Part shown: piece after piece, positions 10,445-38,852 of the stretch | Position numbering within the stretch: position 1 is the stretch's first letter | Layout: each line of letters starts with the position of its first letter | Source of the DNA: a virus | Virus record (IMG/VR): IMGVR_UViG_3300021597_000002 | Span: 14,303-78,302 of that record | Strand: one strand, 5' to 3' | Length of the DNA: 64,000 nt | Program-made: the position numbers and the translations under genes | The notes under the pieces: model-generated | The model's input: the letters and a program-made list of their open reading frames with translations, nothing else | Databases searched by the model: none | What the model was told of the DNA's origin: nothing

Positions 10445-10999
10445 TTACGCCGCTTGTTCTATTGCCAAACCAGACTCTGTTAAAGCTGCTTGTACCGCTT
10501 CAATAATGCGGACCATGTAGGCGTATTTGTGAGGGACTCGCGTTGGGACAGTAATTGAACCAAAGTCCAAATACTCAAACTCTTCTTCGCTTTCAAAATC
10601 AGTGCATTTATAAGTGTCATAGCTATGTTCTGGTGCGTATTCTTCCCAATCTTCAATATCGTAAAGCGCACGAGCTAAGCTAGAGCCGATAAGATTCATG
10701 CGACGGCGACCTAATATGTGCTCTCTAGCTAAGGGTAAGAAAGCGTCATAATCAGGCTCTTCACTACTTAATGCTCCGCACAGGTTAGAGATCAGGTAGC
10801 CCTCATCGCAGCTGCAGAAGAACTGCGCAATAGTTCTTCCACCCATAGCGCCCCAGAATGAAGACCAAGACTTACCGTAGCATTCAATGACAATCTTTCC
10901 TTTGCCAATTTCATAGTCTTCTAAAAAAACAGTGATTGGGTCGAGGGATTCAACCTCAGTAATGCGCAACTTAATCGCTGTGCTTTGTTCGATTTTCAT
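10445..10999 (-). CDS. Conserved hypothetical phage protein
   Basis: LDPITVFLEDY..GKGKIVIECYGKSWSSFWGAMG; RBS present. Confidence 0.7.
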   Translation of the reverse strand: MKIEQSTAIKLRITEVESLDPITVFLEDYEIGKGKIVIECYGKSWSSFWGAMGGRTIAQFFCSCDEGYLISNLCGALSSEEPDYDAFLPLAREHILGRRRMNLIGSSLARALYDIEDWEEYAPEHSYDTYKCTDFESEEEFEYLDFGSITVPTRVPHKYAYMVRIIEAVQAALTESGLAIEQAA

Positions 11000-11149
11000 G
11001 ATTTTTTCCTTTGGTCGGGGTTACAAATCTAATTGCTATAACGAGAATATAATAAGATTGTGTAAATCAATCAAGGGAAAGATAGGGAAATGTGAGAAAT
11101 GACGGGGGATTTCTTATTGCTAAAACGTGCTTTTAGCAATTAGGAAGCT

Positions 11150-11327
11150 AAAAAAATGCCCCGCATCCTTGCGAGGCTACCCTAATACCCTACTGGCAGT
11201 GCAATCTATACATTGGGATAGCAATGCTCGCTCTTGGCATGAGGTTGGGGGACGACAGCCAGTGTAAACACCACTTACCGAACCCCCGTGTGCAGCTAAG
11301 GGAAGCTACGCCATTGCAAACAATGCC
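11150..11327 (-). ncRNA. Candidate small RNA 2 (~175 nt)
   Basis: CAACA-N6-TGTTG-N24-TAAGAT promoter (11333-11378), no credible ORF, ends in the GCCTCGCA..TGCGGGGC-poly(T) terminator. Confidence 0.45.
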
Positions 11328-11383
11328 CGTTCATCTTAGTGCGGTCACTACGCAGCCAACCACAACAAAAAAATGTTGGATAT

Positions 11384-11446
11384 AAGAAAGCCCACTCACA
11401 AGAGCGGGCTTTGTCTTACACCGAGTTGAAAGAAGGAAGCTTTCAC
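11384..11446 (-). ncRNA. Candidate small RNA 1 (~60 nt) with an anti-Shine-Dalgarno-like seed
   Basis: TAACA-N6-TGTTG-N23-TACTAT promoter (11452-11496), then GCTTCCTTCTTTC, then the AAAGCCCGCTC-TTGT-GAGTGGGCTTTCTT terminator. Confidence 0.55.
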
Positions 11447-11629
11447 AAACGATAGTACGGACGCTTATGCGCTGGTACTACAACATTTTCTTGTTATCCT
11501 CGCCGCCTTACTAAGCCACACAATGGCGCAGCCATTGCCCGTAATTTAAACGATTAGGACCATTGTTCCTGTGTAGTTAGCATGAGTATTTTTTACACAG
11601 GGTTATCCCCTTAATTTGGGGATAACCGC

Positions 11630-13348
11630 TTATGCTCGCTTATAAAACTTGAAGAACTCATCCAATCGCTCGATTTCCATCAAGCCAACTTGAGCGTACT
11701 CCTCCAAGCCGTCCTCTATCCAATCACCACATGCTGACTGTATCGCAGCTCTAACCTCGGGGTAATCTTCAGCAAGACACTCAACCACACCACCGCTTTC
11801 AATTGCAGCCACTGCCTGATCTGCTGGGCTTGATTCTTCCTCTCCCAGCAATGCCATTGCGTTAGCCAGTGCACTATCAGATTGACCGTCGCTTTGCTCG
11901 CCGGCAGGAATGTAATCCACCAACCAGAAGAATGCTGTTGCGTCGAAAATATCAGGAGACTTAATGCCCTCACTACGCAGCTGCTTCTTAGAGAACAGGC
12001 GCCAACGTCCCAACTCATCAAACTCATACGGGATCTTGACGAATTGCTTCTGCAGTTTCTTCTCAAACTGTTTCGTCTCACCTTTATGCAGCTTCAAGCG
12101 ACCAGTATTCAACGCTTCCTTGACCATGACACACGCATAGTCTTTTTCTTTCGGGAATCGCTGTTTCACTGAGTTAGCATGTGGAGGTCTACCCCAGTGG
12201 ATGCGAGTAACATTCACACCAAGCTTTTCACACTCTTGAGCAGTTGTCAGACCGTACCCGTCCGCATCAATACCAACAGTGATATTGGTGTAGCCAGATG
12301 TTTCTTGATGGATAAAGCGAGCAAATTGAACCCCATCCATATCTGCAGGTGCTTCGATAGCCTTAACGACCTCTACCTGTCGCTCACTACCAAAGCCACA
12401 AACCTTACCGATCTTGAGCACTGAGCTATCTCGACCTTCACCGCCTGCAACGTCGGCAACAGCCACCCATCCCCACTCATCAACAAACTCAATAACCGCC
12501 TCAAAGCCTTTATCGACCATGCTACGGGAGATCAGGAAGCCACTTGCATCATCAGGACACACACCAAGAACACGAATGCCATACTCAGGGCTACTCACAC
12601 CCCCGTATTCGATACGTTTTTCTCGGATAAACTTGAGGTTAACAAACGGACTCATTTCACTATTAAGCGTGATAGCCGTGTACAACCCTTGCTCTGCCAA
12701 TTCCATTTGTGAATCAGCAAAGTGACCAGTTGGGCGCGTAAACTGGCTAATGAGTAGCATTTTGTTGTTGTCTTCGGTCAATGCACCACGAAGCACTTCA
12801 AACGCTCGATCGGATACACCAGACGCTTCATCGACCACCACCATGTAATCCCTACGGTGCTGACCGGCTAAGCCTTCCTCATTGCCTTTTGAACATGTTT
12901 TCCCGAAAATTTGCCATACGCCCTTGTAGCCTTTCGCATAGAAAGACTTAGCTGTAATGACGAAGTACTGCTCCAACCACGGCTGACGCTGGCAGATCTT
13001 CACCCAAAGGCGCTTAATGTATGAGAAGACAACGTTAGTTACCTGATCTAAGGAGTTTGCCGTCAACATACACAGAGATTCTGGGTGTGTAATGATGAAA
13101 TGAAGACACAAAGCTGCGGTTAGGTGAGACTTACCCGTACCGTGACCAGAAGCAACAGACACACGCGCCCCGACCGGAGTCAGGGCGTTAATGACTTCAA
13201 TTTGCTGAAACGATGGTTCCATCCCGATAATGTCGTAGATGAAAGCCAACGGTCGACTTCGGTAGCTCGCTGCAAAATCCAGATAACGAGGATCCAGCGT
13301 AATAGCGGCGTGCTTATGCTTTTTGCGGCTTCGGTTTCTAGCTGCCAT
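11630..13348 (-). CDS. pacB: Terminase large subunit (P1 PacB-like)
   Basis: VASGHGTGKS Walker A, VVDEASGV Walker B, ADVAGGEGRD and SPDIFDA nuclease motifs. Confidence 0.95.
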   Translation of the reverse strand: MAARNRSRKKHKHAAITLDPRYLDFAASYRSRPLAFIYDIIGMEPSFQQIEVINALTPVGARVSVASGHGTGKSHLTAALCLHFIITHPESLCMLTANSLDQVTNVVFSYIKRLWVKICQRQPWLEQYFVITAKSFYAKGYKGVWQIFGKTCSKGNEEGLAGQHRRDYMVVVDEASGVSDRAFEVLRGALTEDNNKMLLISQFTRPTGHFADSQMELAEQGLYTAITLNSEMSPFVNLKFIREKRIEYGGVSSPEYGIRVLGVCPDDASGFLISRSMVDKGFEAVIEFVDEWGWVAVADVAGGEGRDSSVLKIGKVCGFGSERQVEVVKAIEAPADMDGVQFARFIHQETSGYTNITVGIDADGYGLTTAQECEKLGVNVTRIHWGRPPHANSVKQRFPKEKDYACVMVKEALNTGRLKLHKGETKQFEKKLQKQFVKIPYEFDELGRWRLFSKKQLRSEGIKSPDIFDATAFFWLVDYIPAGEQSDGQSDSALANAMALLGEEESSPADQAVAAIESGGVVECLAEDYPEVRAAIQSACGDWIEDGLEEYAQVGLMEIERLDEFFKFYKRA

Positions 13349-22102: not shown

Positions 22103-23106
22103 TTTGCACCCCCTTGACGAGACAACTGATCACGAAGGTTAGGCGGGGTTCCCTTGATGGTAAGAGTGTCGGTTTCCGCATCATAGAAAACACGCTCGCC
22201 TAGCAACAGCGCGTCAAAGGTAAGATTGATGCCGCCACCAGCACCAACAAACTTTGTAAGCTTACGAACACAGGCAGAATCTACAGGAAAGCTTTCTTCT
22301 AGTTCATAACCCTGATCTTGGGTGTAATTAACGAACGAACCTACGTCACCGAAGTCTGGCAGCTCACCTGACAGCTCTTTAACGCAAACTTCTTCACCAA
22401 GTTTCTTTTGTCCATTGCAGTAGTCATGAACTTGCTTCTTAACGGACATCTTTTCTTCGCGGTCTAACTTCGCATCCGCACAGAAATCTTCAACCGCCTG
22501 CATGAGAACTTGGTTTTGTTGCTTTGCATCGAAGCCAACTTCTGCCTGCAGAAAATCAAGGAAGAAGTCTGACACCTTACGACCTACACGCCCTTTGATG
22601 AATGATAGGTAGCGATTTGATTCTGTATCCGTTTCAAATGTCGACAGGTCCACTACAGCGGCAAGATCCATCTTGGCAATATCCAGATAAGCCGTAGCAC
22701 TTAGGCTTAGGTTGTCCATTACGGTCATACCAGAGTTAGATGAAACTAAGCCCACCAGTAAGTAATCAGTTGCCAATGATTGATACTGAGCAAAAACAAG
22801 TGTGCCCTCATCAGCAAATGGGTATTTGCTTAGTTCATTTTTAAGTCGGATTGCGCCTGTCTTAGAGAACTCATAGAAAGGAGCATTACCTTTACGGCAA
22901 TCAATTAACCACTGCTTGAACTCACTATCCGACTGAAATTGTCCGTAGCCCTTGGTTTTACCCGAATAAGCGCGATGAAGCTCTTCTACTAGCGCTTCAT
23001 ACGCAGGCTGGATTGGATGATGGTGATTACCGTAGTTAACCGTCAATTCGTCTTGTTCGTTTTTAACCAACTGGTGTAGAGCAACTGCATTCAGTGAAAT
23101 ACTCAT
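22099..23106 (-). CDS. ndpA: Nucleoid-associated protein NdpA/YejK
   Basis: ALHQLVK, RYLSFIKGRVGRKVSDFFLDFL, TLTIKGTPPNLRDQL. Confidence 0.93.
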   Translation of the reverse strand: MSISLNAVALHQLVKNEQDELTVNYGNHHHPIQPAYEALVEELHRAYSGKTKGYGQFQSDSEFKQWLIDCRKGNAPFYEFSKTGAIRLKNELSKYPFADEGTLVFAQYQSLATDYLLVGLVSSNSGMTVMDNLSLSATAYLDIAKMDLAAVVDLSTFETDTESNRYLSFIKGRVGRKVSDFFLDFLQAEVGFDAKQQNQVLMQAVEDFCADAKLDREEKMSVKKQVHDYCNGQKKLGEEVCVKELSGELPDFGDVGSFVNYTQDQGYELEESFPVDSACVRKLTKFVGAGGGINLTFDALLLGERVFYDAETDTLTIKGTPPNLRDQLSRQGGAK

Positions 23107-23155
23107 TGGGTTTCCTTCTTTGTGTGATTTAAAGGGTTTTGGTCAGGGTCTGTAA

Positions 23156-25335: not shown

Positions 25336-25411
25336 AAGGTTGGCGTATCGCCCCGACCAAAGATTGATACGCCATAGTCTACACACCACACAGGAAGAAG
25401 GATCCCAAACA

Positions 25412-25609
25412 ATGGACAATCAACAGTTATCCAGAATGGAACGCTCAGAGCGCCTGTTAGCTGCTCACTGTTTTCTTATGCGTAAACCAGTTCCCTATTC
25501 TATGCGCCTCAAGAAGTCGCTGCAAGCAAAGCTCACGCGCATTGATCAGAAGCTCGAAGTTTATATCGACAAAATCTGGAGCTTCCTAAATAGCTCTATG
25601 CAGCCATAA
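25412..25609 (+). CDS. Small hypothetical protein
   Basis: AAGAAGGA RBS before MDNQQL. Confidence 0.6.
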   Translation: MDNQQLSRMERSERLLAAHCFLMRKPVPYSMRLKKSLQAKLTRIDQKLEVYIDKIWSFLNSSMQP

Positions 25610-32402: not shown

Positions 32403-33304
32403 GTCGCTACCCCACCCAAAGCATCAAACAACTGAGGCAGGAAGGCATCAAACTCACCAGCAAACAGAACCATATCAGCATCAAATCGCTGAGCGACATC
32501 TTCTCTCGCAATATCGTCATTTTGGTCGGTCAGTTCGTCAGAAAACTTTAATCGCTTTAAGCTGCCATCATCCGACAAGATGAAGTCAACACGATCTTGC
32601 CAGTTGACTGCCAGCTTCGTTACTACTTTGTCAGCTTCAATGTGTGACTGAATTTCTTCAGAAGTCAGCTCTTGTTGTTTACAACGGATTTGACCGCCAT
32701 CTTCTAATACTGATTTTAGCTCTGCTTCCTCAAGCAATGAAAAACCGCTAGGAACTTCACCAGTCTTTAACCAATCAGTCAGAGTTACCTCAATCGCAGA
32801 CGCAAACGTAACAGGAACCACCGGCAAAGAGCCGATTGTTTTTCTTAGCAGGGCTAAAACGTCTTCCGCTTTCTTAAAGCTGCTGGCATCAACAAAAAGC
32901 AATTCTTTTTTAGGGCAAATCCAAACATAAGTGGTATTGGTTCGTTTAAATGCTCGTGGTAGCAAATCAATGACGACATCATCCTTAATGTTGTCTTTCT
33001 CTTTTTTCTTGAGAGGTCGACCTTCCGCAGCTTCAAGAGCATCTATGCGCTCATTTACTTCCTCTTTGATTACCGATGCTGGCAACATTTTCTCTTGAAG
33101 ACGAGCAGCAAGCAAAATCCAATCAGCACCGACATGCAATAGCTGATCGCTATGTTTACCCATTACTGGCGCCCACCCAAACTTCCGTTTGTCTTGCTCA
33201 CCGCATGGAACGAACGCAAATTCAGACAGTTGCTCACTTAGTTGGTCGGGAGTGAGTTGAACTGTCCGAGAAAAGCGATAAGCCATGATATTTTTAGGCT
33301 TCAT
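32393..33304 (-). CDS. rdgC: Recombination-associated protein RdgC
   Basis: [35 protein letters not shown]. Confidence 0.95.
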
Positions 33305-33331
33305 ACTCTGGGATCCTTCTTTCTTCTGGTA

Positions 33332-33748: not shown

Positions 33749-33936
33749 TTCGATTTCAGCCTTCCAACGTCACCGCTAAGCCGTGGTACCGCGCTCTACT
33801 TCAAAAGCGCTTTTGGTTGCCACAACAAACTTTTATCTTTTTGTTGTGCACTGTTTACCGTTTTTAGCGATGGCGAGAAACAACAAAAAAATGTTGTTTA
33901 ATCTTTTCTCGACTGGATCAAAACTTCGCAGATCAA

Positions 33937-38141: not shown

Positions 38142-38192
38142 AATTAAGCTTTTATGTGCTATGATAAGCCCACACAAAAGAAGGAGATGCTC

Positions 38193-38852
38193 ATGATTAT
38201 CTTAGTTTTTGGGCAAAGAGGGGGAGCAATGAAGTCTATTTGTTCCCAAAACTTAGCCGTAGAACTTGCACACCGCCAACATTCAGTTTGTCTGGTTGAT
38301 GCAGACCCGGGTGGCACCACTACAAACTTTGGCGCCTACCGTGAAGAAGAAGGTGTTGAACCTGAAATCTTCTGTGTCCAGAAGAAAGGGAAGATCACTA
38401 AAACCCTGCAGGAGCTGGATACAAAATACGATTATGTGATTGTTGATGTACAGGGAAACATCGAGCCTACACGCACACAAGAAATGCGTAGTGGTTTGTT
38501 AGCAGCTCATATTGCACTTGCTCCTTTCAAACCCACTCAGGACCACAGGGATAGCATTCTAGATGTACAGGATCTGATTGATTCTGCCAAAGATTTCAAT
38601 TCCAAATTAAAAACGTTTTGCATGGTCTCGATTGCCTCGACCCATATTGCGAGAAAGCAAGACATTATTTTCACCAAAGACACTCTGAAAAAGTTCAGCA
38701 CCATGGAAGTTCTCGATACTGTGACATACAACCGAGTGGTGTACAGCGATGCCTACGCTGTTGGTCGAGGCGTAAGAGAAATGAACGATACAAAAGCAAA
38801 GGAAGAAATGAACGCCTTAGTTGAAGAATTACTGGAGAAAGCAAATGGCTGA
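38193..38852 (+). CDS. parA: ParA-family ATPase (short, type Ib)
   Basis: GQRGGAMKS deviant Walker A, LVDADP, YDYVIVD, GRGVRE. Confidence 0.88.
   Translation: MIILVFGQRGGAMKSICSQNLAVELAHRQHSVCLVDADPGGTTTNFGAYREEEGVEPEIFCVQKKGKITKTLQELDTKYDYVIVDVQGNIEPTRTQEMRSGLLAAHIALAPFKPTQDHRDSILDVQDLIDSAKDFNSKLKTFCMVSIASTHIARKQDIIFTKDTLKKFSTMEVLDTVTYNRVVYSDAYAVGRGVREMNDTKAKEEMNALVEELLEKANG

Follow-up and report, generated by a model that had tools for sequence, protein, structure and literature searches.

A predicted small RNA gene behind a lytic-cycle promoter in the p0908/pVv01 family of phage-plasmids, with a possible seed for the element's own ribosome-binding sites

IMG/VR virus record IMGVR_UViG_3300021597_000002 is a member of the p0908/pVv01 family of P1-like plasmid prophages, that is, a Vibrio phage-plasmid; the 64-kb stretch analysed here (the window) covers most of its 78.3 kb. 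On the minus strand of the window, a 630-nucleotide (nt) gap without open reading frames (ORFs) separates the stop codon of pacB (11630) from the start of the next minus-strand ORF (10999), and this gap harbors a compact unit that can with good confidence be taken for a genuine, discrete small RNA (sRNA) gene driven by a lytic promoter. The predicted transcript is 57–65 nt long, would start at about 11444 and stop at about 11384, and carries a CU-rich motif resembling an anti-Shine–Dalgarno (anti-SD) sequence. The fuller statement, that this lytic-promoter sRNA gene acts by seed pairing with the AAGAAGGA-type ribosome-binding sites (RBSs) of the element's own mRNAs, is given a probability of about 0.4. 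Granted that the sRNA is real, anti-RBS pairing as its mode of action is put at somewhat worse than even odds.

The promoter belongs to a class that is found repeatedly in the element. The core AACA-N6-TGTT occurs nine times in the window against 1.8 expected occurrences, a count that none of 100 shuffles reached. At eight minus-strand sites the layout of box, 23 nt and hexamer lies 24–62 nt ahead of an ORF start, and the ORFs behind the box include those for the portal, an Hdf-like antirestriction protein, the tail tube and a DarB-like giant protein as well as the first gene of the lysis/packaging operon, whose box has holin/endolysin/spanin/TerS/PacB genes downstream. The hexamers of this class are often poor (CAAACT, TACCCT) and a −35 element is missing, which is typical of activator-dependent promoters. 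The sRNA promoter likewise has no usable −35 at 17 nt, the TAGTAC found there matching TTGACA at two of six positions, and a 7-nt discriminator separates its TACTAT from the G at 11444 that opens GAAAGCUUCCUUCUUUCAACUCGGUGUAAGAC. Three of the 14 box sites examined (11496, 11378 and 393) have no ORF of at least 50 amino acids within 300 nt downstream, and among these a terminator follows only 11496 and 11378. An earlier reading of this DNA, made from the letters alone (the sequence-only reading), had described a lytic promoter followed by an RNA of some 60 nt and an intrinsic terminator; on the minus strand at 11496–11380 these sequence claims hold, and so does the assignment to a lytic-promoter class, with its over-represented motif and its layout ahead of portal, Hdf, tail tube and lysis cassette. 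The name "late" promoter needs adjustment: a perfect box also stands ahead of the operon with rdgC and trfA, so "lytic-cycle promoter" is the safer term, and the class is better read as lytic-cycle and activator-dependent.

A search for the lytic promoter as a long repeated word found nothing, the motif being short and palindromic, and a generic sigma-70/terminator scan reported neither the sRNA promoter, because it lacks a −35, nor the hairpin, presumably since A/U pairs extended the stem into the T-run and so shortened the latter. In P1, 11 late promoters share a 9-bp inverted repeat that is bound by Lpa (PMC10695390). The promoters described here resemble them in combining a −10 hexamer with an inverted repeat that replaces the −35 and is shared by many late operons, whereas the repeat is of the form 5-N6-5 (CAACA-N6-TGTTG), ends 23 nt upstream of the −10 and is centred near −43, not overlapping −35/−22. 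As both the sequence and the position of the repeat differ from those in P1, it is an analogue and not the same site; no Lpa homolog was identified for the element. The operon of a 138-amino-acid helix-turn-helix-like ORF, rdgC and trfA has, within 33819–33896, a perfect box (33896–33881), a second TGTTGTGGC half-site (33827) and, nearby on the plus strand, a mirror-image TGTTGTG at 33842; through this cluster the lytic activator could control its own expression.

Comparison with relatives supports a functional unit. The closest relative at the locus is a 74-kb Vibrio campbellii BoB-90 plasmid, with 98% identity over the region of interest. Clear relatives are p0908, a V. parahaemolyticus plasmid, Alteromonas pAMBAS45, V. 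cholerae pE7G, V. vulnificus p48/10 and a Photobacterium toruni plasmid, and a scan of genome contigs with one query sequence added a Xenorhabdus plasmid and a V. owensii contig. The unit occurs in four sequence types, namely window/BoB-90, p0908 (with two loop variants), V. cholerae/V. vulnificus (pE7G) and Xenorhabdus; further relatives, with PacB at 66–69% identity (V. vulnificus HAS6077990.1 among these proteins), exist outside this comparison. In all four types the box is followed by exactly 23 nt, TA(C/A)TAT, exactly 7 nt and then G. Between types, 12–13 of 16 box positions and 5–6 of 6 positions of the −10 are identical, against 5–10 of 23 in the spacer and 1–3 of 7 in the discriminator. 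The window box thus shares 13/16 positions with pE7G and 12/16 with Xenorhabdus, and the window spacer 8/23 and 10/23, which is near random. A geometry that stays constant while the spacer sequence is randomised marks a promoter in working use, and the preservation of box, 23 nt, hexamer, 7 nt and G together with a terminator makes it very likely that this is a real sRNA gene.

Within the transcribed part, every type retains the terminator hairpin with all of its outer pairs, and its inner pairs change from G-U to A-U or, with both sides altered, from U-A to C-G or G-C. Both UCCUUCUUU and UCGGUGUAAGA are common to the window and pE7G types despite 74% identity across the gap. The latter does not vary among the Vibrio/Alteromonas types, and the Xenorhabdus copy retains it only loosely; the extended seed UCCUUCUUU is confined to the Vibrio/Alteromonas types, and UCCUU is universal. 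The P. toruni plasmid and an IMG/VR twin of it are without the small unit, and a single box there feeds directly into a larger structured RNA (RNA2), which in the other elements follows the sRNA unit. In more distant P1-like elements (THAF64, V. alginolyticus, Spartinivicinus and IMG/VR L043, with PacB at 41–57%), no comparable unit was found after the terminase gene, and pattern scans of viral and metagenome contigs returned p0908-type copies and chance matches only, with no new sequence type. Among 401 Vibrionaceae genomes, the close family was found only in V. owensii and a P. toruni genome. With regard to the family as a whole, the Xenorhabdus bakwenae plasmid (77 kb) and Alteromonas pAMBAS45 are near-identical members, their PacB proteins being 88–96% identical, which suggests that a single phage-plasmid lineage has spread over an unusually broad set of hosts, being found in an Enterobacterales insect-pathogen symbiont as well as in Alteromonas.

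Ahead of the terminator hairpin, the transcribed part reads GAAAGCUUCCUUCUUUCAACUCGGUGUAAGACAAA (minus strand). The 65-nt RNA of the window type is predicted to fold into a 5' hairpin and the terminator, with a folding z of −5.0 against shuffles, and across the four sequence types z ranges from −3.6 to −5.7, in each case better than shuffles. In the window type UCCUU occupies the apical loop with a predicted probability of being unpaired of 0.93–0.99, and in four of five variants it is apical in the hairpin at +1, with probabilities of 0.8–1.0. The extension of the seed, CUUUC, is the weak, A/U-rich 3' half of the 5' stem in the window type, where part of the linker can also pair with the U-tail. 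The pE7G and Xenorhabdus types end in UUUAUUUUUU(U), giving strong U-tracts of 6–7 U. The minus strand of the unit contains no ORF of at least 30 amino acids. A 38-amino-acid plus-strand frame (11339–11455) was considered and rejected as a gene or type I toxin, as it is hydrophilic, has no SD sequence and spans indel-rich alignment columns. Rfam gave no hit at the gathering threshold in the whole window and, for 10900–11700 at E values up to 10, nothing meaningful, the best match being a Trp leader (E = 0.95) that owed its score to the terminator; genes for tRNA or tmRNA were not detected. The features of the unit and its candidate targets are collected in Table 1.

Table 1. Parts of the predicted sRNA gene and the RBSs proposed as its targets (positions in the window)
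Feature	Positions	Strand	Remark
Palindromic activator box TAACAAGAAAATGTTG	11481-11496	minus	CAACA-N6-TGTTG class, 1 mismatch
Spacer, 23 nt	11458-11480	minus	length fixed, sequence free; cross-type alignment
-10 hexamer TACTAT	11452-11457	minus	TAATAT in pE7G and Xenorhabdus
Putative start G and 5' hairpin GAAAG-CUUCCUU-CUUUC	11428-11444	minus	start placed by the conserved 7-nt distance to the -10
Anti-SD-like seed UUCCUUCUUUC	11438-11428	minus	universal UCCUU at 11437-11433
Linker AACUCGGUGUAAGACAAA	11410-11427	minus	contains UCGGUGUAAGA
Intrinsic terminator stem GCCCGCUC/GAGUGGGC, loop UUGU	11409-11390	minus	fold and conserved pairs
Interrupted, short U-tract UUUCUUAUAU	11389-11380	minus	terminator tail
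mazE RBS	663-671	plus	9-nt seed complement, 8 nt before ATG; candidate target
ndpA/yejK-like RBS	23112-23121	minus	10-nt complement, 5 nt before ATG; RBS kept in pE7G; candidate target
orf25412 RBS	25395-25402	plus	8-nt complement; candidate target
rdgC RBS	33314-33323	minus	10-nt complement, 9 nt before ATG; candidate target
parA RBS	38177-38185	plus	9-nt complement; candidate target

The sequence-only reading had also proposed that the seed is complementary to the RBSs of ndpA, rdgC, parA, mazE and orf25412, and these complementarities proved exact (10, 10, 9, 9 and 8 nt, respectively). Each of the five sites lies 1–9 nt upstream of the start codon of an ORF of 65–335 amino acids; orf25412 is the shortest of these (65 amino acids, 25412–25609) and stands first in an operon that also contains a PmgS-like head-morphogenesis gene and an exonuclease. 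The octamer AAGAAGGA is the commonest in the RBS windows of BoB-90 and, tied with three others, in those of pE7G. Leaving aside the antisense strand of the sRNA gene itself, it has five copies in the window, all of them at RBSs, and the whole genome holds one further copy, which is inside a gene outside the window. The RBS matches are conserved between BoB-90 and pE7G. When RefSeq gene starts are taken (86 genes for BoB-90, 99 for pE7G) and the 25 nt before each start are searched for at least eight contiguous complementary bases, four genes are matched in each element, compared with about 0.5 for full shuffles of the 32-nt 5' part of the RNA (p = 0.003 and 0.002), a null that is too lenient, as the anti-SD core does not survive shuffling. 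In a fairer null, each native SD-containing 13-mer stands in for a perfect anti-RBS seed; these 13-mers match a mean of 0.6 other genes, and the sRNA seed matches four annotated genes. The sRNA thus matches the largest RBS family of the element, and the excess over chance is real but modest.

The five leaders (655–680, 23106–23130, 25385–25412, 33304–33330 and 38168–38193) share more than the SD sequence, all of them reading CACA(N)-AAGAAGGA-(A/U)(A/C)CC, and the P. toruni orthologs of parA and orf25412 share AAATCCCATGCAAA..AAGGACATA instead. This hints that the leaders evolve as a family within each element, with a common factor acting on them. A search of the 78-kb genome for a long antisense partner of the sRNA elsewhere yielded none; the best non-self duplex, at −26.8 kcal/mol, is unremarkable for 7,828 windows.

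From these elements the following course of events can be proposed as the likeliest. An activator-dependent lytic-cycle promoter, made up of the palindromic box, 23 nt and a −10 without a −35, would transcribe the sRNA from about 11444, and transcription would stop at the intrinsic terminator at about 11384. The UCCUU exposed in the loop would nucleate pairing in trans on the purine-rich Shine–Dalgarno region of AAGAAGGA-type mRNAs and, in the Vibrio types, the weak 5-bp A/U stem would open so that pairing could extend to UUCCUUCUUUC. Such pairing would lower the translation of rdgC, ndpA, the 25412 operon, parA and mazE once the lytic programme is on. If rdgC is a true target, its position in an operon behind a lytic box would create an incoherent feed-forward loop.

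A number of observations weigh against this proposal. Between 4% and 6% of native SD-containing 13-mers match at least three other genes, close to the count of the seed itself, and any CU-rich, anti-SD-like RNA matches RBSs. Cofold energy gain does speak for the proposal, in that the five best-ranked leaders of BoB-90 and those of pE7G both include rdgC, the orf25412 homolog and the PmgS-like neighbour of the latter (orf25412 at ranks 1 and 3, rdgC third and first, respectively), but the two rankings are not independent because sRNA and leaders are both homologous. The pE7G type has UCCUU immediately 3' of a different hairpin, and here the motif is predicted to be mostly paired. Near-identical elements differ by indels in the bases 5' of the seed (GCU, GGUA, GGUUA), so on that side only N-UCCUU is constrained. 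The candidate targets are functionally mixed, comprising an antitoxin, a partition ATPase, a nucleoid-associated protein, RdgC and a small ORF of the PmgS operon, and rdgC is itself transcribed behind a lytic box, which does not agree with the earlier claim that the sRNA shuts off early genes. Hfq-dependent sRNAs are recognised by a terminator with a long uninterrupted U-tail and an A/U-rich site beside the hairpin. The U-tail of the window type, UUUCUUAUAU, is short and interrupted, leaving the label "Hfq-type" unsupported.

The relatives also allow a test of whether seed and targets have changed together. In Xenorhabdus the sRNA loop reads GGGUAUCCUUAUCG, that is, the extended CU stretch is lost and only UCCUU is kept, and the parA and orf25412 RBSs are still AAGAAGGA; a seed that changes over unchanged RBSs shows no covariation, which argues against a tightly co-evolving sRNA/RBS pair. 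The Xenorhabdus sRNA would nevertheless be able to pair with AAGGAUUCCU at nine of ten positions at two RBSs. The P. toruni element, which has no sRNA, carries AAGAAGGA at no RBS, its rdgC, parA and orf25412 orthologs having AAAGGA(U/C)A, and a replacement anti-RBS RNA was looked for in this element and not found. The joint absence of the sRNA and of the AAGAAGGA RBS family fits targeting, but it is a contrast with a single lineage, the most divergent one, and is confounded with phylogenetic distance. The sequence-only reading is supported as regards a discrete, promoted and terminated non-coding unit, which is also conserved, with a CU-rich anti-SD-like motif; repression of the genes that it listed stays a proposal.

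The surroundings of the unit bear on what else it might be. It is placed directly 3' of the lysis/packaging operon (an 82-amino-acid protein, endolysin, spanins, a hol-like protein, a TerS-like protein and finally PacB, the terminase gene) and ahead of RNA2. The latter is a structured RNA of about 190 nt (11150–11336, minus strand) with a strong terminator at 11158–11177 followed by T7, and it is preceded by a second lytic box on the minus strand (11378), consisting of a perfect CAACATTTTTTTGTTG, 24 nt and TAAGAT. Its consensus fold over seven sequences comprises 44 pairs, of which 18 show compensatory changes. No family member lacks this RNA, P. toruni and Xenorhabdus included, and it has no Rfam match. 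Between the pacB stop and the sRNA promoter (11500–11632, minus strand) there is a perfect 10-bp hairpin, GGTTATCCCC-N7-GGGGATAACC, without a U-tract, followed by the conserved palindromes AGGAACAATGGTCCT and CAATGGCTGCGCCATTG; all of these are conserved as far as pE7G and in part in P. toruni, and they may be protein-binding sites or a pac-related region. On the far side of RNA2, a 184-amino-acid minus-strand ORF has a sigma-70-like promoter, TTGATT-17-TATATT, at 11074–11046 (within 11028–11135), flanked by the inverted pair ATTGCTAAAAGC/GTTTTAGCAAT (about 11105–11133) and followed downstream by another copy, TATAGCAAT. All relatives retain these sites, whose half-site resembles the P1 C1 operator (ATTGCTCTAATAAATTT).

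Other explanations of the unit have to be set against this background. A real sRNA might match the RBSs incidentally and have other targets, such as host mRNAs reached through the UCGGUGUAAGA linker, or might serve as a protein-binding or sponge RNA, which is rather unlikely. The linker is at least as conserved between the Vibrio types as the CU stretch, the anti-SD match is modest over the fair null, and the hosts of the element include Vibrio, Alteromonas and Xenorhabdus; on the other hand, the linker is not kept in Xenorhabdus, its 9-nt matches in the element are inside coding sequence and at chance frequency, and in the window type it is in part available to the U-tail. In addition, the genome of the V. 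owensii host has no complement to the extended linker and seed beyond one match with three mismatches inside a long ORF. The sRNA could instead be a terminated leader or alternative 5' isoform of RNA2, with the first promoter feeding RNA2 by partial read-through past a leaky terminator and the short RNA arising as a by-product or attenuation product. Two lytic boxes in tandem, 118 nt apart, the weak U-tract of the window type and the deeper conservation of RNA2, which is present even where the small RNA is absent, speak for this arrangement. It is nevertheless unlikely: RNA2 has a perfect box and −10 of its own and so needs no upstream promoter, the pE7G and Xenorhabdus terminators end in the strong U-tracts described above, no conserved antiterminator pairing was seen, and pairing between the sRNA and RNA2 was not above shuffles in any of the four types.

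Still less probable is that there is no functional RNA at all, and that the locus is a DNA-level activator site joined to a terminator working in both directions, which would shield the packaging operon from the repressor-controlled operon that follows. The hairpin has an A-run on one side and a T-run on the other and could therefore terminate both strands, and the gap is rich in conserved palindromes resembling protein sites. The exact 23-nt and 7-nt spacings and the near-consensus −10, kept through a randomised spacer, are those of a working promoter, however, and the 20-nt stretch between the hairpins is conserved and not palindromic. An immunity antisense RNA like c4 or that of P4 CI, holding an antirepressor or early operon off through neighbouring complementary boxes, is very improbable. 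The unit does lie just upstream of a promoter flanked by ATTGCT-type repeats, which resemble the C1 operators of P1, and the c4 RNA of P1/P7 pairs around the RBS through loop sequences (PMC12197685). Against this, the C4 model of Rfam finds nothing here even at E = 10, the promoter class is lytic and not one expected to be active in lysogens, and no a/b-type boxes are nearby: the flanking gap and the downstream leader contain no complement of at least 8 nt, the leader (CCAAAGGAAAAAAUCAUG) offering one of only 6 nt.

An sRNA gene under lytic control is then the reading to be placed among known systems, and the unit is very probably an unannotated phage-encoded trans-acting sRNA of the same kind as DicF, VpdS and PreS (PMC12197685), the genes named above being candidate targets on the evidence of sequence. 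DicF of the Qin prophage of E. coli is a 53-nt trans-acting sRNA that represses translation at the start region of mRNAs such as ftsZ (PMC12197685). The present RNA is similar in being prophage-encoded, about 50–60 nt long and equipped with a terminator-like 3' hairpin; whereas DicF is processed from the dicB operon transcript and has host targets, this RNA has an activator-dependent promoter of its own and candidates within its own element, and it shows neither sequence similarity nor an Rfam hit. VpdS of the Vibrio phage-plasmid VP882 is about 50 nt long, acts in trans on phage and host mRNAs and is linked to the lytic programme (PMC12197685). Both are lytic-linked small RNAs of plasmid-like Vibrio phages, but VP882 is an unrelated, N15-like linear plasmid phage, VpdS binds Hfq, and no homology was seen. 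The c4 RNA of P1/P7 lies in the immunity region and acts on ant mRNA, its loop sequences masking the ribosome-binding region (PMC12197685). It shares with the present RNA an origin in a P1-type phage and a loop-exposed sequence able to pair with an RBS. The c4 RNA is processed from the same transcript that it controls. The present RNA differs in being lytic-promoted and located beside pacB, with no C4 model match and no complementary boxes nearby.

The papers found on the p0908/pVv01 family describe no regulatory RNA for it. Independent of its targets, the analysis defines a lytic promoter class (CAACA-N6-TGTTG, 23 nt, −10) and what appears from sequence to be a pair of promoter-to-terminator non-coding RNA genes absent from Rfam. 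Phage-plasmids must switch from plasmid life, with its partition, addiction and replication control, to lytic life, and how they shut down the plasmid functions once induced is, to our knowledge, largely unknown. A far-reaching version of the proposal, which must be regarded as a long shot, is that the lytic activator induces an RNA that masks a shared RBS module (CACA..AAGAAGGA) of parA, mazE, ndpA, rdgC and the 25412 operon. If this were true, commitment to lysis would dismantle plasmid maintenance at the level of translation, and starvation for MazE could release the MazF toxin as part of host shut-off. As pVv01 is inducible by mitomycin C and yields myovirus particles (PMC4132613), the switch is accessible to experiment, and if the sRNA acts in the lytic phase as a riboregulator of the RBS family of its own element, it would provide a simple, testable example of the transition from plasmid to lytic life.

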